DNA of 64,000 nucleotides, taken from an archaeon (GTDB taxonomy: Archaea > Nanobdellota > Nanobdellia > Woesearchaeales > GW2011-AR15). Below, one piece after another: positions 17,885 to 26,200 of this stretch (positions are counted from its first letter, which is position 1; every line of letters begins with the position of its first letter). The notes under the pieces were generated by a model, which was not told the origin of the DNA, did not search any database, and saw only the letters and a program-made list of their open reading frames with translations. The stretch covers positions 21,695-85,694 of the forward strand of contig JABHHN010000080.1 of the NCBI GenBank assembly GCA_018671515.1. Direction: 5' to 3'. A program made the translations under genes and the position numbers.

Positions 17885-19368
17885 CAAGAATTTGTATTCC
17901 TATTGTAGCAGAAACTATAGATAATTTCATAAAAGATATAAAAAAGGCAGAAATTTTAAGTGACTTAATTGAACTAAGAATTGATTATATTAAAGATTTT
18001 AAAATTGATAAACTTGAAAAACTGATTAAAAATTGTACTAAAGATTTTATTATTACTTGTAGACCAAAAAATAATGGTGGTAAATTTGAAGGTAATGAAA
18101 AAGAAAGAATTTCTATTCTTGAAAAAGCAATTGATTTAGAATGTCCATTTATTGATTTAGAAATAGAAACTGAAAATAAAACTATATTAAACTTAATCAA
18201 TAAAAAACAGAAAACAAAAATTATCCTATCTTACCATGATTTCAAAAAAACTAATTCTCTCAAAAAACTAAAGATAAAATATGATGAAATGAACTCTTAT
18301 TTTCCTGATTTTTTAAAAATTGTAACTTATGCAAATTCTATAAATGATAATTTTAATATATTTAGTTTGTTAAATGAAAAATCAAATCTAATATCTTTCT
18401 GTATGGGAATAAGAGGTCATATTTCAAGAATATTAACTGCAAAATATGGTTCATATATTTCATATGTTTGTTTAGAAGAAGGAAAGGAATCTGCAGATGG
18501 ACAGATAAGTGCAAAATATATTGAAGATGTATATAATTTTTCATCTATTAATAAAGAAACAAAAGTTCTTGGTGTGTTAGGTAGTGTTGCAGAAAACTCA
18601 AAATCTAAATTCATGCATAATGCTAATTTCAAAAAGAAGAAACTAAATTTTATTTATATACCATTTAAAGTAAGAAAAGAAGAATTAAAAGAACTTATTA
18701 AAAATTTTAAAATTTTTGAATTCAGAGGTGGAGCTGTCACTATTCCACATAAAGAAGACATTATGCAATATTTTAATAATATTGATAATACTGCAAAAAT
18801 TATTGGAGCTACAAATACTTTTGTAAATGATAATAGTATTTTTAGTGGACATAATACTGATTATTATGGAGCAGAACATGCACTAAAAGAAATCACAAAA
18901 TTAAAAGATAAAAAAATTCTTGTAATAGGTGCAGGTGGAGCTGCAAGATCTTTATGTTATGTTCTAAATAAAGAAAAATCAAATTTTACAATAATAAACA
19001 GAACATACGAAAAAGCTAAATTACTTGCAGATGAATTCAATGGTTCTTGTTCTAAATTTAAAGAATTAAAAAAAGAAATTAATAATAATGATATAATAAT
19101 TAATACAACTAGTGTTGGGATGAATCCAAACAATAATGAATGTATTATTGAGGAGAAAATATTTCCAAAAAATAAAATAATAATGGATATGGTTTACAAT
19201 CCTATTGAAACTGTCCTTATTAAATTAGCAAATAAAAATAATTGTACAATTATTACCGGAGATAGAATGCTTGCTTATCAAGCAATTGGACAATTCAAAC
19301 TTTGGACAGGAGTTGATCCTGATTTTGATTTAATGCAAAAGGCTTTGCTGGAGCATTTAGATGAATGA
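17881..19368 (+). CDS. bifunctional type I 3-dehydroquinate dehydratase / shikimate 5-dehydrogenase (AroD-AroE fusion)
   Basis: 495 aa. The N-terminal half is AroD-like (ELRIDY..., SYHDF). The C-terminal half is AroE-like (VLGSVAENSKS, NTD..G, VIGAGGAARS Rossmann, MVYNP). Confidence 0.85.
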   Translation: MTRICIPIVAETIDNFIKDIKKAEILSDLIELRIDYIKDFKIDKLEKLIKNCTKDFIITCRPKNNGGKFEGNEKERISILEKAIDLECPFIDLEIETENKTILNLINKKQKTKIILSYHDFKKTNSLKKLKIKYDEMNSYFPDFLKIVTYANSINDNFNIFSLLNEKSNLISFCMGIRGHISRILTAKYGSYISYVCLEEGKESADGQISAKYIEDVYNFSSINKETKVLGVLGSVAENSKSKFMHNANFKKKKLNFIYIPFKVRKEELKELIKNFKIFEFRGGAVTIPHKEDIMQYFNNIDNTAKIIGATNTFVNDNSIFSGHNTDYYGAEHALKEITKLKDKKILVIGAGGAARSLCYVLNKEKSNFTIINRTYEKAKLLADEFNGSCSKFKELKKEINNNDIIINTTSVGMNPNNNECIIEEKIFPKNKIIMDMVYNPIETVLIKLANKNNCTIITGDRMLAYQAIGQFKLWTGVDPDFDLMQKALLEHLDE

Positions 19369-20239
19369 TTTAATTGGAGTCGGACTAGGAATACTAAGTG
19401 GACTATTAGATGCGACAAAAAATGCATTATTTAGGTATTCTAAAAACAAAGTCGATCCTTTAACTTTTGGTCTTTACGGTGTATTTATTGCAACATTGAT
19501 TATGCTACCAATTCTTTTGTTTCATGGAATTGTTATTTTAAATGTAAATTTCTGGTATTCACTTATTGCTGTCACATTTTTAGATGGGATTTCATCTCTT
19601 ATGTATATCAAGGCAATTCAGATTTCTGGATTAAGTAACACTGTTCCACTTATAACTATAACACCAATATTTATTGTAATAATTGAATTTTTTATTTTAG
19701 GAGATATTCCTTCAAAATTAGGATTCTTAGGAATATTTTTGATTGTCATAGGTGCTTATTTACTTAATTTCAAAAAAAAGAATAAAAATTATTTGGAACC
19801 TTTTAAAAGTTTAATGAATGATAAAGGATCCAAGACAATGCTAATTGTATCTTTTTTGTTTGCTGTCGTTGCAATTTTATATAAGACTGGAATAAATGCT
19901 TCAGATGAAATAACTTTTTTTTCATTTGCTGTATTTTCTATCTTTATTTTCTATTTTTTTATTGCATTATTTAAAATAGATTGGAAAACATTTGTTAAAG
20001 CTAGAAAGTACTTTAAAATATTTTTTTTTACTTCAATCATTGGAACTATTGGTTCATTATTGACTACATTTGTTATGAAAATAATATATGTTAGTTATGC
20101 AATATCTTTAAAGAGACTTTCAGTTTTATTTAGTGTATTAATTGGATTTTTGATATTTAAAGAAAAAAATTTCAAAGAAAAAATAATAGGAAGTATCATT
20201 ATGGTAATAGGAGTATTAATAATAGGTTTATATGGGTGA
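19361..20239 (+). CDS. EamA/DMT-family transporter
   Basis: 292 aa with ~10 TM and a two-EamA-repeat pattern. Confidence 0.65.
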   Translation: MNDLIGVGLGILSGLLDATKNALFRYSKNKVDPLTFGLYGVFIATLIMLPILLFHGIVILNVNFWYSLIAVTFLDGISSLMYIKAIQISGLSNTVPLITITPIFIVIIEFFILGDIPSKLGFLGIFLIVIGAYLLNFKKKNKNYLEPFKSLMNDKGSKTMLIVSFLFAVVAILYKTGINASDEITFFSFAVFSIFIFYFFIALFKIDWKTFVKARKYFKIFFFTSIIGTIGSLLTTFVMKIIYVSYAISLKRLSVLFSVLIGFLIFKEKNFKEKIIGSIIMVIGVLIIGLYG

Positions 20240-20245
20240 GAAAAT

Positions 20246-21337
20246 ATGTCAGGAGATTCATTTGGGAAATTATTCAAAGTAACAAATTGGGGAGAAAGTC
20301 ATGGAAAAGCAATAGGTATAATTATTGAAGGGTGTCCTCCTCTTCTTAACATTACTGAAAAAGAAATTCAAAAAGAGCTTAATAGAAGGACACCGGGCCA
20401 AAGTAAAATAACTACTCAGAGAAAAGAACCAGATAAAGTTGAAATCATTTCTGGAGTGTTTAATGGAAAAACCACTGGAACTCCTATATCTATGATAATC
20501 CATAATACTGATTTCAAAAAAGAAGATTATAAAGAAATAAAAACAAAATATAGACCAAGTCATGCTGATTTTACTTATGATAAAAAATATGGAATAAGAG
20601 ACCCATCAGGTGGTGGAAGAACATCTGCTAGGATGACTGCTGGAAATGTTGCTGCAGGAGTAATCGCTAAAAAAATATTAAAAGAAAAATTCAAAATTGA
20701 AATAATTGCATATGTTAAAACAGTAAGGAAAATTGTTGCAGATATAGATCCATATGATGTTACTAGAGAAGAAGTTGAACAAAACATTATAAGATGTCCA
20801 GATAATAAAAAAGCAATAGCTATGCAAAGATTGATTTCTCGAGAATTAAGCTATGGTGATTCCTTAGGAGGAATTATTGAATGTGTTATAAGAAATGTGC
20901 CTATTGGATTAGGTGAACCAATATTTGATAAAATAGATGCAGATTTAGCAAAAGCAATGTTATCAATAAATGCAACAAAAGGTTTTGAAATTGGAAGTGG
21001 TTTTTCTGGAACAAAAATGCTTGGTAGTGAACATAATGATCCATTTGTGATAGAAAAAGGAAAAGTTGTAACTGAAACAAATAATTCTGGTGGAGTGCAA
21101 GGTGGAATCACCAATGGTATGCCTATTATTTTTAGAGTAGCATTCAAACCTACATCTACAATAAGTCAAAAACAAGATACTATTGATAATAAAAATAAAG
21201 AAGTTGTTATTGAAGGAAAAGGAAGACATGATCCTTGTGTACTTCCTAGAGCTGTTCCTATTGTTGAAGCAATGTCTGCATTGGTGTTATGTGATCATTA
21301 TATGAGACATATTGCACAATGTGGTGATATAAAATGA
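20246..21337 (+). CDS. aroC: chorismate synthase
   Basis: [27 protein letters not shown] and GRHDPCV motifs. Confidence 0.92.
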
Positions 21338-21606
21338 ATCTTGAAGATGCAAGAAAAAAAATTGATGATATAGATACTAATATTATAGATCTTCTTTCAA
21401 AAAGACTTTCGTTTGTAAGTGTAATTGCAAGATACAAATTAAAGCATAATATTGATAGAAAAGATGAAAAAAGAGAAGAAGAAATATTAAAAAATAAAAC
21501 ATATTTAGGAGCTAAAAAAGGGCTTGATGATAAATACATAATAGATTTATATAAAAGAATTATTCTGGAAAGTCATATTATTGAAAAAAAAATCATGAAA
21601 AGGTGA
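21334..21606 (+). CDS. chorismate mutase (AroQ class)
   Basis: 90 aa with [20 protein letters not shown] helix 1. ATGA overlap with aroC. Confidence 0.8.
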
Positions 21607-21612
21607 ATTAAA

Positions 21613-22740
21613 ATGGAAGTTAGAAAAGATATATCTGAAATTAAACTTACAATTAGAAAAATAACTGAAATTGCTAAAGCAAAAAATAATTGTATCAGAT
21701 TTGATATTGGACAACCAGATTTTGATACACCTCAACATATAAAGGACGCTACAAATAAAGCACTTATGGATGGAAAGACAGGATATGGTCCTGTTCGTGG
21801 AGTGGATGAACTAAGAATTGCTATTGCTGAATATGAATCTCAAAAAGATGGACTTGATTTTGATGAATCAAATATAATCGTGACTACCGGTGGTATGCAT
21901 GCTTTATTTTCAGTATGTCTTGCATTTTTAGAAAAGGGAGACGAAGTAATAATTCCTGACCCTTATTGGGCCGCATATAATCTAATTATAAAATCTGTTG
22001 GTGGTGTTCCTGTTCCAGTACATTATGTCGATGATTCAAAACTTTTAATTGAAGAATTAGAACGTGCAATAACTTCAAAAACTAAATTCATATTTGTGAA
22101 TTCTCCTTCAAATCCAACAGGAGAAATATTAATAGATGAAGATCTTAAAAAAATTGCAGATTTAGCAGAAGAAAAAGACATAATAATAATTTCTGATGAA
22201 GTATATGAAAGAATGCTTTTTGGTGAGCATAAATTTTCAAGTATCGCTAAATATGCTCCTAAAAGAACATTAAGAATAAATTCTACTTCTAAGACATATG
22301 CAATGACTGGTTGGAGAATTGGATGGCTTACTGGAGATAAAGATTTGATTATACAAATTGCAAAATGTATTAGAGCAACTATTGCATGTGTAACTAATTT
22401 CATTCAATATGGTGCAGTTGCTGCATTAAATGGTCCTCAAGATGAAGCAATGAATATGAAAAAAGAATATGAAAAAAGATATGTTGCATTCAAAGAAAGA
22501 GTTGATAAGATTGGATGGACTTATTTAACACCAAAAGGAACTTTTTACATGTTTGTTGATACAAAAGAAGATTCATGGCCATTCTGCCTTAAGATGATAG
22601 AAGAAATAGGCGTTTCATCTGTTCCAGGGGCTGCTTTTGGTGATTTTGGAAAAACATATGCAAGATTCTGTTATGGAAGTGTTAGTGTTGATAAAATAAA
22701 TGAAGCATTTGATAGAATTGAAAAATGGTTAAAAAAATAG
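21613..22740 (+). CDS. class I/II pyridoxal-phosphate aminotransferase (aspartate/aromatic)
   Basis: NPSNPTG and SKTYAMTGWRIGW (PLP lysine) motifs. An AGGTGA SD lies upstream. Confidence 0.85.
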   Translation: MEVRKDISEIKLTIRKITEIAKAKNNCIRFDIGQPDFDTPQHIKDATNKALMDGKTGYGPVRGVDELRIAIAEYESQKDGLDFDESNIIVTTGGMHALFSVCLAFLEKGDEVIIPDPYWAAYNLIIKSVGGVPVPVHYVDDSKLLIEELERAITSKTKFIFVNSPSNPTGEILIDEDLKKIADLAEEKDIIIISDEVYERMLFGEHKFSSIAKYAPKRTLRINSTSKTYAMTGWRIGWLTGDKDLIIQIAKCIRATIACVTNFIQYGAVAALNGPQDEAMNMKKEYEKRYVAFKERVDKIGWTYLTPKGTFYMFVDTKEDSWPFCLKMIEEIGVSSVPGAAFGDFGKTYARFCYGSVSVDKINEAFDRIEKWLKK

Positions 22741-22741
22741 A

Positions 22742-23992
22742 ATGAAAACTAAAACCAATAATATTGAAGTCATGTCGCCTGCAGGATCATATGAAGCACT
22801 TCATGCTGCAATAAAAGCAGGTGCAAATTCTGTATATTTTGGTGTAACTCAATTAAATATGCGTTCTAGATCTTCTAAAAATTTCACATTAGAAGATCTT
22901 AAAAAAATAGCTAAAATATGTTCTGACAATGATGTAAAATCATACTTAACACTAAATACTGTAATGTATGAACACGATATGACATTGATGAAAAAAATAT
23001 GTGATACTGCAAAAAAATCAGGAGTGACTGCATTAATAATTTCAGATATTTCAGCAATGATGTATGCACATTCAATTGGCATAGAAATACATATTTCAAC
23101 ACAGGCAAACGTCTCTAATTTTGAAACTGTAAAATTCTATTCTCAGTTTGCAGATGTAATTGTACTTGCAAGAGAGCTTACATTATCACAAGTAAAAGAA
23201 ATTGTTAAAAAAATAAAAAAAGAAAAAATAGAAGGACCAAATAGAGAATTAGTCCAGATTGAACTTTTTGCTCATGGAGCAATGTGTATAGCAATTTCTG
23301 GAAAATGCTATATGAGTTTATCAACATATAATTCATCTGCTAATAGAGGTGCATGTCTTCAAAACTGTAGAAGATCATACAAAGTGACAGATTTAGAAAC
23401 TGGAGATGAGCTTGAAATTGATAATGAATATGTAATGTCTCCAAAAGATATGTGCACAATTGGTTTTATCGATAAAATGATTGAATCAGGTTCTGTTGTT
23501 CTAAAATTAGAAGGAAGAGGAAAAGCACCTGAATATGTATATACAGTTACAAAATGTTATCGTGAAGCTGTTGATTCATATTATAATGGAACTTATACTA
23601 AAAAGAAAATAAAAAAATTGACTGATGAATTAAAAACTGTATATAATAGAGGATTTTGGGATGGATATTATAGAGGGAAAAAATTAGATATGTGGGCAGG
23701 CGAATATGGCTCACAGGCAACTAAAGAAAAAATATATGTAGGACGTGCAGAAAATTATTATAAAAAATTAGGTATTGCACAATTCGGCCTTGATGCTAAT
23801 TCAATAAGAAAAGGAGACGATTTAATAATAACTGGACCAACTACCGGAATATTAAAACAAAAAGCAAAATCATTATTTATTAATGAAAAAGAAGTTGATA
23901 TCGCACCTAAAGGAAGTGTTGTTACATTTCCAATAAAAGAAATTGTAAGAAAAAATGATAAATTGTTCATTTACAAAGACATAAAAAAGTAA
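22742..23992 (+). CDS. peptidase-U32-family protein (TrhP/RlhA/UbiU-like putative Fe-S hydroxylase)
   Basis: N-terminus EVMSPAGSYEALHAAIKAGANSVYFG. Four Cys are spaced C-x6-C-x15-C-x3-C (CIAISGKCYMSLSTYNSSANRGACLQNC, about nt 23284-23370). Confidence 0.8.
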   Translation: MKTKTNNIEVMSPAGSYEALHAAIKAGANSVYFGVTQLNMRSRSSKNFTLEDLKKIAKICSDNDVKSYLTLNTVMYEHDMTLMKKICDTAKKSGVTALIISDISAMMYAHSIGIEIHISTQANVSNFETVKFYSQFADVIVLARELTLSQVKEIVKKIKKEKIEGPNRELVQIELFAHGAMCIAISGKCYMSLSTYNSSANRGACLQNCRRSYKVTDLETGDELEIDNEYVMSPKDMCTIGFIDKMIESGSVVLKLEGRGKAPEYVYTVTKCYREAVDSYYNGTYTKKKIKKLTDELKTVYNRGFWDGYYRGKKLDMWAGEYGSQATKEKIYVGRAENYYKKLGIAQFGLDANSIRKGDDLIITGPTTGILKQKAKSLFINEKEVDIAPKGSVVTFPIKEIVRKNDKLFIYKDIKK

Positions 23993-24157
23993 TGGTGAAT
24001 TGGAAATAAACTTACTAAAAGTTAGTAGATTTAATTTTTAATAAAAAAATGAAAATAAACTCACTAATGGTTCGTACTTTCCATTTTTTAATAAAAAAAT
24101 GAAAATAAACTCACTAATGGTTCGTACTTTCCATTTTTTAATAAAAAAATGAAAATA
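23991..24157 (+). repeat. 50-bp tandem repeat, ~3.3 copies (one degenerate, two identical, one partial that merges into the fdx start)
   Basis: Units 24041-24090 and 24091-24140 are identical (ATAAAAAAATGAAAATAAACTCACTAATGGTTCGTACTTTCCATTTTTTA). 24001-24040 is a diverged copy. 24141-24157 repeats the first 17 nt. Confidence 0.9.
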
Positions 24158-24370
24158 TCACATCAAAGAGATAAATGTATTGGATGCAATTCATGTGTTG
24201 AAGATGCTTCAGAATACTGGAAAATTTCCAAAGAAGACGGAAAAGCAGATTTATTAGGTTCAATAAAAAAAGGTAATTTTTATATCTTAGAAACTTCAAA
24301 TATTGACATTGAAAAAAACAAAAAAGCAGCAGAAATTTGCCCAGTAAATATTATAAAAATTTATGAGTGA
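24149..24370 (+). CDS. small mono-cluster ferredoxin
   Basis: 73 aa with CIGCNSC...CP (CPVNIIK), the pattern of single-cluster ferredoxins. Confidence 0.7.
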   Translation: MKISHQRDKCIGCNSCVEDASEYWKISKEDGKADLLGSIKKGNFYILETSNIDIEKNKKAAEICPVNIIKIYE

Positions 24371-24375
24371 TAATT

Positions 24376-25167
24376 ATGAAAATAGGTTTATTAGGTCCAG
24401 CAGGAACATTTACGGAAACAGCTTTAAATAAATATAATAAAATTGCTAAAAAAGTATTTTTAAAAAGCCATTTTGATGTATTTGATGCTGTTAATAATGG
24501 TCTAGTTGATAATGGAATTATTGCTATTGAAAATCAAATAAATGGTTTTGTTTTAGCAAATATTGATCTTTTTCTAAATACTAATATGAATATAATTCAA
24601 GAAATAATAATACCAATACATCATTGTCTTGCAATACCTATTGGTTGTAAAAAAATTAAAAACATTATTTCTCATCCACAAGCTCTTGCTCAATGTCAGG
24701 ATTATATTATAAAAAAATATCCAGGTGCCAGAAAAATTCCATCTGAAAGCACAGCTCGAGGAATGGAAGAAACTAAAATTATTAGTAATTCTGCAGGAAT
24801 TGGGCCTACGCTGGCTGCAGAAATGAATGATTTGAATATTATTGATAAAAATATTGAAGATTATAAAAAAAATGAAACAAGATTTTTTATAATAACAAAA
24901 AAAAAAACTATTAATAATAAAGGTAAAAAAACTAGTATAGTATTCATCTGTAAGCATGAACCTGGATCATTATATAATAGTCTAAAAGTATTTGCTAAAA
25001 ATAAAGTAAATCTACTTAATATTTTTTCAAGACCAATAAAAAATAAATCATGGGAATATTCATTTTATATTGAATTAGAAGGAAATGTCAATGGAAAAAA
25101 AATTATTGAATCTATTAAAAAATTAAAAGATCAAAGTTTAAAAGTAAATATTTTGGGATCATATTGA
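24376..25167 (+). CDS. pheA: prephenate dehydratase with C-terminal ACT domain
   Basis: MKIGLLGPAGTFTE, NETRFFIIT (TRF motif) and an ACT segment GSLYNSLKVFAKNKVNLLNIFSRP. Confidence 0.88.
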   Translation: MKIGLLGPAGTFTETALNKYNKIAKKVFLKSHFDVFDAVNNGLVDNGIIAIENQINGFVLANIDLFLNTNMNIIQEIIIPIHHCLAIPIGCKKIKNIISHPQALAQCQDYIIKKYPGARKIPSESTARGMEETKIISNSAGIGPTLAAEMNDLNIIDKNIEDYKKNETRFFIITKKKTINNKGKKTSIVFICKHEPGSLYNSLKVFAKNKVNLLNIFSRPIKNKSWEYSFYIELEGNVNGKKIIESIKKLKDQSLKVNILGSY

Positions 25168-25369: not shown

Positions 25370-26200
25370 ATGAAAAATAAAATTGGAATAATAGGCGGAA
25401 ATGGCAGTATGGGCAAATGGTTTAGTAATTTTTTTTCTAATCTCGGTCATGATGTAATTATAAGTGATTTAGGAACTAAACTCAGCAATAAAGATGTTGT
25501 TGAACAATCTGATGTAATAATTATTTCTCTCCCTATGCAAATTGCACCAAAAATTGTTAAAGAAATTTCTAAATTTACTAAAGAAAATCAATTAATTATT
25601 GATATAACTGCATTAAAAGAAGAAATTGTAGAAAAACTTCTAAAAACTAAATCTGAAATTGTAAGTATCCATCCATTATATGGTCCATCATTAAAATCCA
25701 TATCTGGACAGACTGTTGTTGTATGTGATGTAAGAACAGATAAATGGAATGGATGGATTGAAAAAATTCTAAAAAAAGAAGGTGCTAAGATAAAAGAAGC
25801 AACACCAAAAAAACATGATAAAATGATGTCTGTAATTCAAGGTCTCACACATTTTAGTCTTATAAGTCTTGGTCATGCATTAAAAGAACTTGATATTGAT
25901 ATTGACGAGAGTCTGCAATACACAAGTCCGATATATAAAATAAGATTAGAAATGGTAGGAAGGATTTTGAATCAAAATCCTGTTGTATATTCAGATATAG
26001 CTATAAATAATAAAAATAGTAAAGACATCTTAAGTGTTATGATGAAATCTATGGATGAACTTAAAAAAATAATAAACAATAAAGATAGTGAAGGTTTTAT
26101 TGATTATTTCAACAAAGCATCAAATCATTTTGGTGAATTTAAAAAAGAAGCAATGATAGAAAGTGATAAAATGATAAAGGCGGTAAGTGAAGATGAATGA
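25370..26200 (+). CDS. tyrA: prephenate dehydrogenase
   Basis: GIIGGNGSMGKWF Rossmann fold, SIHPLYGP and HDKMMSVIQGLTHF. GGTGA SD at 25361-25365. Confidence 0.85.
   Translation: MKNKIGIIGGNGSMGKWFSNFFSNLGHDVIISDLGTKLSNKDVVEQSDVIIISLPMQIAPKIVKEISKFTKENQLIIDITALKEEIVEKLLKTKSEIVSIHPLYGPSLKSISGQTVVVCDVRTDKWNGWIEKILKKEGAKIKEATPKKHDKMMSVIQGLTHFSLISLGHALKELDIDIDESLQYTSPIYKIRLEMVGRILNQNPVVYSDIAINNKNSKDILSVMMKSMDELKKIINNKDSEGFIDYFNKASNHFGEFKKEAMIESDKMIKAVSEDE

Follow-up and report, generated by a model that had tools for sequence, protein, structure and literature searches.

Within a stretch of 64,000 nucleotides of archaeal DNA (Woesearchaeales, GW2011-AR15; GenBank assembly GCA_018671515.1, contig JABHHN010000080.1, positions 21,695 to 85,694 of the forward strand), which we refer to as the window, a gene for a U32-family protein of 416 amino acids (positions 22742-23992, + strand) is followed by one for a single-cluster ferredoxin of 73 amino acids (24149-24370, +), and both lie inside a co-directional operon for aromatic biosynthesis. 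We think it somewhat probable that the U32 protein is a prephenate-using Fe-S hydroxylase with the ferredoxin as its partner. A first-pass annotation of this DNA had already proposed a functional tie to prephenate and a candidate archaeal hydroxylase that works without O2, and this proposal is now supported by gene cassettes which encode the U32 protein together with chorismate mutase (CM), the maker of prephenate, by the co-occurrence of the two proteins in genomes without chorismate synthase, and by the recurrence of U32-ferredoxin adjacency.

The 416-residue protein matches the U32 domain (PF01136, Peptidase_U32; E 1.9e-65, 220.9 bits against a gathering cut-off of 22.4) and has the four cysteines read in it at first pass, in the arrangement CX6CX15CX3C (C182-x6-C189-x15-C205-x3-C209; CIAISGKCYMSLSTYNSSANRGACLQNC), as well as the PROSITE-type signature E-x-F-x2-G-A-M-C. 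The motif is kept in 153 of the 155 full-length members of the clade to which the protein belongs, and is therefore not a chance feature. Given that the four-cysteine CX6CX15CX3/4C motif of U32 proteins binds a [4Fe-4S] cluster (Pelosi 2019, PMC6747719), the window protein is, by its motif, a predicted [4Fe-4S] protein. An AlphaFold (AF2) model (predicted local distance difference test score, pLDDT, 79; predicted template modelling score, pTM, 0.81) consists of a TIM barrel and a C-terminal beta-barrel, with the cysteine loop disordered, as expected when the cluster is absent. Foldseek matched this model to the U32 barrel 5D88 (E 4.8e-7, TMt 0.59) and its C-terminal 80 residues to the U32 C-terminal domain of 4HE5/4HE6 (TM 0.89, root mean square deviation 1.0 Å); a sequence search of the Protein Data Bank gave no match, so that the fold search alone was informative. 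The Pfam U32_C model does not match the window protein itself, although it does match the close orthologues P0049 and P0107 (62-66% identity) and Escherichia coli TrhP. As modelled, the build is TrhP-like, a U32 TIM barrel plus a U32_C beta-barrel, in a protein of a different lineage. The names given in databases, 'collagenase-like protease' and 'U32 family peptidase' among them, would instead suggest a genuine peptidase of the collagenase type, secreted or cellular, which we consider scarcely credible, since no signal peptide is evident in the window protein, nearly all members retain the Fe-S motif, the partners are a dedicated ferredoxin and CM, and the genomic context is that of cytoplasmic metabolism. 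Nor does the protein group with collagenase-type proteins that lack the cysteines, as its clade, Bacteroidota included, keeps them.

Membership in one of the TrhP, RlhA or UbiU/V subfamilies, among which the first-pass annotation had suggested placing the protein, did not survive comparison with profiles and a phylogenetic tree, both of which placed the protein in a separate clade. Its best NCBIfam score was to the TrhP model NF011996 (178.7 bits, far under the cut-off of 534), followed by UbiU (151.7 against 440), and UbiV scored 52.1 against 275; identity to the E. coli K-12 proteins is 25% for TrhP (end to end), and 31% for RlhA and 29% for UbiU over the barrel. TrhP was rejected on its score, on this low identity and on the position of the protein outside the reference branch of the tree, RlhA on the lack of a match to DUF3656 (PF12392), and UbiU/UbiV on their scores and on the lack of an adjoining second U32 or SCP2 (ubiT-like) gene. 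In the maximum-likelihood tree all proteins of about 410 amino acids form one group (98% support by the Shimodaira-Hasegawa-like approximate likelihood ratio test, SH-aLRT), apart from E. coli TrhP, UbiU and RlhA and from an RlhA-like paralogue. This paralogue is a second U32 protein of the same genome, with 734 amino acids, the same cysteine motif and a borderline match to DUF3656 (22.0 bits, where the cut-off is 22.1), encoded on a separate contig (G000:C38 = L002:148-2352, minus strand). The window protein falls in a 'type A' clade (97% support) made up of a subclade from DPANN archaea and the candidate phyla radiation (CPR) and a subclade from Bacteroidota, while most DPANN archaea of the same order carry 'type B', which branches more basally and is 41-49% identical to it. 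Homologues at 60-73% identity are abundant in DPANN archaea, the nearest ones being named Woese-, Pace- or Nanoarchaeota, and those at 53-60% occur throughout Bacteroidota and also in CPR, Lentisphaerae, Fibrobacterota and other groups.

CM supports a link between this clade and prephenate. Six archaeal type A contigs (L209, L216, L235, L044, L046 and L211) carry, between the U32 and ferredoxin genes, a gene for an AroQ CM of 76-81 amino acids (CM-like in L046 and L211), and the genes of these cassettes overlap or nearly abut. No other aro genes accompany the L209 cassette, the neighbours of which were annotated, and in a further genome (G148) CM lies 9 nt from U32. Residues R11, R28, K39, D48, R51 and E52 are retained in the cassette CMs, whereas S84 and Q88 vary. 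A gene of the DUF523/2-thiouracil desulfurase family (PF04463; L209:5539-5955) is found immediately upstream of the L209 cassette.

The same association is seen in the distribution of the two proteins over a sample of 151 genomes, in which almost every family of the order is represented once; U32 of this type is present in 74 of them, chorismate synthase in 29, CM in 52 and prephenate dehydratase (PDT) in 41. Fisher tests, which treat families as independent, gave an odds ratio of 8.8 for the co-occurrence of U32 and CM (p = 1.8e-8). All 29 genomes with the shikimate pathway, as judged by chorismate synthase, have CM; among the 122 genomes without chorismate synthase, U32 is found in 21 of the 23 with an orphan CM (odds ratio 22, p = 1.9e-7), and in 13 of 14 when only genomes at least 90% complete are counted (p = 4e-5). 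Where CM is present and both chorismate synthase and PDT are absent, U32 is present in 14 of 15 genomes. PDT, our control for general metabolic richness, gave an odds ratio of 3 (p = 0.09). The orphan CMs of high-quality genomes are proteins of 83-98 amino acids encoded in unrelated surroundings, and only seven CM-bearing genomes have no U32 at all, five of them with the full pathway. The RlhA-like paralogue serves as a useful positive control, because its family is known to need prephenate: homologues occur in 18 of the 151 genomes, and 16 of these have CM. AroH-type CM (PF07736) is absent from all 151. Long CM-like proteins of 196-237 amino acids (plant/yeast-type TIGR01802, E 2.8e-12) are encoded in two DPANN genomes, G035 (L201:4474-5187, minus strand) and G149 (L198:4117-4707, minus strand), neither of which has chorismate synthase.

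The mono-cluster ferredoxin that had been read after the U32 gene was confirmed by domain matches (Fer4_15, E 9.6e-10; Fer4_13, E 2.2e-7), and its cysteine pattern, CxxCxxC...CP, is of the one-cluster type. In tblastn comparisons of the operon proteins with loci from genomes (80), from the DPANN order (80) and from metagenomes (84), ferredoxin emerged as the only widely conserved neighbour of U32. Counted as adjacent when within 700 nt downstream on the same strand, it accompanies U32 at 26 of 56 Bacteroidota loci, at all four CPR-like loci, at 5 of 11 other archaeal loci and at 4 of 17 type A loci of the order (9 of 28 for the archaeal type A loci combined), and at 1 of 60 type B loci; type A adjacency recurs in many metagenome loci as well. 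The arrangement spans two domains (DPANN, CPR and Bacteroidota) and about half of type A loci. As the ferredoxin family is generic, with members in 55 of the 151 genomes, and is uncorrelated with U32, it is the adjacency alone that is meaningful. The parallel with YfhL drawn at first pass fails for the kind of ferredoxin, since the one-cluster type is unrelated to the two-cluster YfhL: tblastn with E. coli YfhL detected no similarity to the window ferredoxin and no real matches in the genome. E. coli TrhP reportedly needs this small ferredoxin, a finding attributed to Lauhon (2019), and the type A pairing is analogous, not homologous, to that of TrhP and YfhL. The ferredoxin is probably the electron partner of the U32 enzyme, as a feature of the type A cassette.

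In the window the pair is flanked as the first-pass annotation had described, by CM and an aminotransferase on one side and by PheA and TyrA on the other. The CM is of the AroQ type (90 aa; 21334-21606, +; PF01817 CM_2, E 3.3e-18) and conserves the catalytic residues R11, R28, K39, D48, R51, E52 and S84 of the E. coli PheA CM domain. The class I/II aminotransferase (375 aa; 21613-22740, +; PF00155, E 5.6e-71) is probably an aromatic aminotransferase, and its stop codon is separated from the U32 start by a gap of 1 nt. Downstream, the start of pheA (PDT and ACT domains; 24367-25167, +; PF00800, E 2.8e-52; NF008865, 239 bits against a cut-off of 219) overlaps the ferredoxin stop, and tyrA (prephenate dehydrogenase; 25370-26200, +; matches to PDH_N and PDH_C) follows. 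No terminator-like sites were found between the CM, aminotransferase, U32, ferredoxin, pheA and tyrA genes. This placement is real but rare, for a search of relatives showed that U32-ferredoxin linkage recurs widely whereas embedding in an aro operon is limited, among more than 240 loci, to the genome of the window and to one genome of a sister genus (G006), in which the order is aroC-CM-U32-aminotransferase-tyrA-pheA, with CM directly upstream of U32 and without a ferredoxin. Taken alone, the position in the aro operon is weak evidence for a link to prephenate. Within the family of the window (f1), six genomes have type B, and type A is found only in the window genome and G006, both times inside the aro operon, so that the operon copy, judging from this distribution, was probably transferred as part of a block.

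Two further contexts support the link to prephenate. In a complete genome of 1.3 Mb without chorismate synthase (G035), genes for U32, a 332-aa radical S-adenosylmethionine protein and a PDH_N-PDT fusion (435 aa) are consecutive (L025:6339-9930, minus strand), and just upstream are genes for an EamA transporter, a DUF6390 protein and a 3-deoxy-D-arabino-heptulosonate 7-phosphate (DAHP) synthase with an FXD domain. Moreover, L207/L208, G006 and the window each have an aminotransferase gene abutting that for U32, and the enzymes belong to three different lineages, with 28-31% mutual identity. This adjacency fits the recycling of phenylpyruvate, the by-product predicted from the proposed UbiU/V mechanism.

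We propose that the 416-aa protein would act as a [4Fe-4S] U32 'oxidase' together with the ferredoxin encoded downstream, forming an O2-independent hydroxylase for which prephenate, produced by CM, would be the oxygen donor. Its substrate would undergo a two-electron oxidation, with electrons passing from the U32 cluster to the ferredoxin, as in the proposal made for UbiU/V (PMC10990095); prephenate would then decarboxylate and donate its C4 hydroxyl, and phenylpyruvate would remain. The adjoining aminotransferase, which could have a role in phenylpyruvate recycling, would convert this product to phenylalanine. The order CM/aminotransferase-U32-PheA/TyrA would place the enzyme where its co-substrate arises and its by-product is consumed, and the location in the operon would make the expression of U32 depend on aromatic pathway flux.

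The main rival to this hydroxylase is an enzyme of aromatic metabolism proper, in which the U32 protein, with its Fe-S cluster and a link to ferredoxin, would act on prephenate as a dehydratase/decarboxylase or dehydrogenase and yield phenylpyruvate or 4-hydroxyphenylpyruvate, with no second substrate such as RNA. Such an enzyme would fit the position of the gene between CM/aminotransferase and PheA/TyrA, the existence of U32-CM-ferredoxin cassettes and U32-aminotransferase pairs without PDT, the 14 genomes which have CM and U32 and neither chorismate synthase nor PDT, and the fact that the proposed U32 half-reaction already turns prephenate into phenylpyruvate (PMC10990095). It is weakened, however, by the canonical PheA and TyrA co-encoded in the operons of the window and G006 and by the PDH_N-PDT fusion of G035, and by the spread of the clade in Bacteroidota, where B. 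thetaiotaomicron, the control genome, encodes PDT as well as CM and chorismate synthase. The U32_C beta-barrel held in common with the tRNA enzyme TrhP, the translation context of type B relatives described below and the 31 U32-bearing genomes without any CM also speak against it, and we regard it as unlikely.

For the hydroxylase, the likeliest substrate would be RNA of the translation apparatus, with the tRNA wobble uridine (a modification of the type of 5-hydroxyuridine at position 34, ho5U34) as leading candidate, although tRNA U34 as the actual target is a tentative assignment, possible rather than probable. RNA is favoured because of the TrhP-like build, because DPANN and CPR genomes of only 0.6-1.3 Mb, with no known quinones, have retained the enzyme, because an RlhA-like role is already taken by the 734-aa paralogue, and because type B genes lie in a translation context (Dph2-like and eIF-1A genes). 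Hydroxylation of a quinone or other small cofactor, in the manner of UbiU/UbiV, would agree with UbiU being the second-best NCBIfam match, but that score is far under its cut-off, neither a UbiV-type partner nor a UbiT gene is found nearby, and UbiU (331 aa) has no C-terminal U32_C domain. Moreover, the small DPANN and CPR genomes that retain the enzyme are not known to have quinone biosynthesis, and we consider a cofactor substrate very unlikely.

Neighbours of U32 other than ferredoxin are lineage-specific. In 25 DPANN-order loci (L181:1811-2458, L038:10636-11265 and 23 others) the gene immediately preceding type B U32, on the same strand, encodes a Dph2-like protein of about 215 amino acids; this protein matches PF01866 (E 2.5e-42) over profile positions 64-279, without the N-terminal domain, and eIF-1A is encoded near the pair in some loci. 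At 9-10 Bacteroidales U32 loci, inspection of the sequence revealed nearby genes for RsgA and for a protein similar to tRNA 2-selenouridine synthase, with rhodanese and P-loop domains (L120:11262-12293 and L099:15302-16228, both minus strand), a recurrence that may be inherited synteny only.

Several observations weigh against a prephenate-using hydroxylase with an RNA target. Of the 74 U32-bearing genomes of the order, 31 (42%) yielded no CM in searches with the Pfam models CM_2 and CM_1, with a yeast-type query and with a custom profile, the four CPR-like genomes with a U32-ferredoxin pair have no CM_2, and some of the 'orphan CM' genomes of low completeness carry other shikimate genes. The ferredoxin family does not co-vary with U32, being present in 23 of 74 genomes with it and 32 of 77 others, and type B relatives almost never have a ferredoxin beside them. 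A tblastn search with E. coli CmoA, CmoB and TrhO found no homologue in the genome, and thus nothing ties the enzyme specifically to 5-oxyuridine derivatives (xo5U). Finally, identity between the window protein and the characterised members of the U32 family is no higher than 25-31%, and for no U32 protein has direct in vitro hydroxylase activity been shown (PMC10990095, PMC11574389). The tRNA gene set is of no help here, as aragorn found only 16 tRNA genes in the 1.88-Mb, 90%-complete, 120-contig metagenome-assembled genome (MAG), a number that is uninformative for wobble decoding and suggests that intron-containing or split tRNA genes are missed by standard settings.

The CM-less carriers are real within the limits of MAG completeness, because the search for yeast/plant-type long CM added one genome only and the custom profile none, and they would have to rely on imported prephenate or on another donor. 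With CM missing from this share of U32-bearing relatives, endogenous supply of prephenate is not universal among U32 carriers. These carriers, the CPR ones included, would suit an alternative in which U32 and ferredoxin form a self-contained cassette, for RNA hydroxylation or otherwise, which entered the aro operon by chance and whose donor or chemistry does not involve prephenate; the presence of the pair in an aro operon in so few loci, and the look of a transferred block that the operon copy has in a family whose other members carry type B elsewhere, agree with this too. Such a chance association is nevertheless hard to reconcile with six independent cassettes in which CM lies between U32 and ferredoxin, with an orphan CM that tracks U32, with the linkage to PDT and TyrA in a different gene order in G035, and with the prephenate dependence of every characterised U32 hydroxylase, and we judge it improbable.

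A broader scenario can be built on the prephenate-using hydroxylase, which we put forward as speculation and think rather doubtful as a whole. DPANN archaea that have entirely lost the shikimate pathway would keep a stand-alone CM only to feed the U32 hydroxylase, some of them as a U32-CM-ferredoxin cassette, and would take up chorismate from the host; the RNA of these archaea would contain a hydroxylated nucleoside of bacterial type, such as ho5U34; U32 hydroxylases would have their long-sought electron acceptor in the one-cluster ferredoxin, and neighbouring aminotransferases would salvage the phenylpyruvate; and Bacteroidota would have this enzyme too, in the form of their 'PrtC collagenase' subfamily.

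The window has a GC content of 26%, and it encodes the archaeal markers PolD large subunit, PAN and archaeal-type phosphoenolpyruvate carboxylase (PEPC). The aromatic operon reads, in order, aroA, Nudix, aroK, aroDE, EamA, aroC, CM, aminotransferase, U32, ferredoxin, pheA, tyrA, DAHP synthase, DUF554 and tyrosyl-tRNA synthetase, with aroC (chorismate synthase) at 20246-21337 on the + strand, co-directional with the other genes. A promoter scan based on sigma-70 was set aside as not meaningful for an archaeal host. The EamA/DMT transporter gene of the operon lies at 19361-20239, and that near the U32 cluster of G035 at L025:11524-12453; it is possible that these transporters carry aromatic intermediates, for example chorismate or prephenate. 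The spacer between U32 and ferredoxin (23993-24148, +), the sequence of which was read directly, contains two identical tandem units of 50 bp (24041-24090 and 24091-24140) that duplicate the ferredoxin start region (aataaaaaaatgaaaata...). A diverged copy precedes the two units, and each of them encodes a mini open reading frame; the spacer has the position that the CM gene occupies in the six related contigs.

If our reading is correct, the clade offers independent comparative evidence that a catalyst, the maker of its co-substrate (CM) and an electron carrier (the one-cluster ferredoxin) evolve as a unit, and its small genomes supply compact sets of two or three genes for reconstitution. U32 chemistry would then be known also from archaea and from a fourth U32 subfamily, an uncharacterised one with a wide distribution in Bacteroidota whose members mostly bear the name collagenase, and there would be an explanation for the otherwise useless CM retained in genome-reduced symbionts.

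That U32 Fe-S proteins need prephenate is already known from published genetics on TrhP (PMC6599085), RlhA (PMC5727448) and UbiU/V (PMC10990095); the role of prephenate as oxygen donor of U32 proteins rests on genetic work in E. coli and B. subtilis, and the electron acceptor is unknown (PMC10990095, PMC11574389). New here are the clade, which stands apart and is uncharacterised, the archaeal host, a ferredoxin that is dedicated and of the one-cluster type, and CM as both cassette member and phyletic partner. A full-text literature search turned up no relevant paper on the combination of CM, U32 and ferredoxin. Closest in build is TrhP (YegQ), which makes ho5U34 in E. coli tRNA (Sakai 2019, PMC6599085) and, like the window protein, is a one-subunit U32 TIM barrel with CX6CX15CX3C and U32_C; its tie to prephenate comes from genetics and that of the window protein from gene context. 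The two differ in clade (98% SH-aLRT), the archaeal protein belonging to a host genome without cmoA and cmoB, and in the ferredoxin, which has 73 amino acids and one cluster in the window, as against the 86-aa two-cluster YfhL, the reported partner of TrhP. RlhA (YdcP), responsible for 5-hydroxycytidine 2501 (ho5C2501) in 23S rRNA, shares the U32 domain and cysteine motif and has a reported dependence on prephenate and Fe-S (Kimura 2017, PMC5727448), but it has DUF3656 and extra C-terminal cysteines, whereas the window protein is without DUF3656. UbiU and UbiV (Pelosi 2019, PMC6747719; Kazemzadeh Ferizhendi 2024, PMC10990095) are likewise Fe-S proteins of the U32 family, and work on them showed that prephenate is the oxygen donor; from them we took over the proposed mechanism in which phenylpyruvate arises as by-product. 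In their case, however, two shorter U32 proteins pair as a heterodimer that works with UbiT, and they occur only in Pseudomonadota that make quinones, whereas the window protein is one chain of 416 amino acids, has U32_C, and belongs to a host not known to have quinones. A further named subfamily is PepU32#4, to which Porphyromonas gingivalis PrtC ('collagenase') has been assigned (Kimura 2017, PMC5727448) and whose reference sequence, H1YXA1_9EURY, is euryarchaeal (Pelosi 2019, PMC6747719). This subfamily, uncharacterised as a hydroxylase, and the window clade both span Bacteroidota and archaea and both have the CX6CX15CX3/4C motif, and from this spread the window clade is probably PepU32#4.

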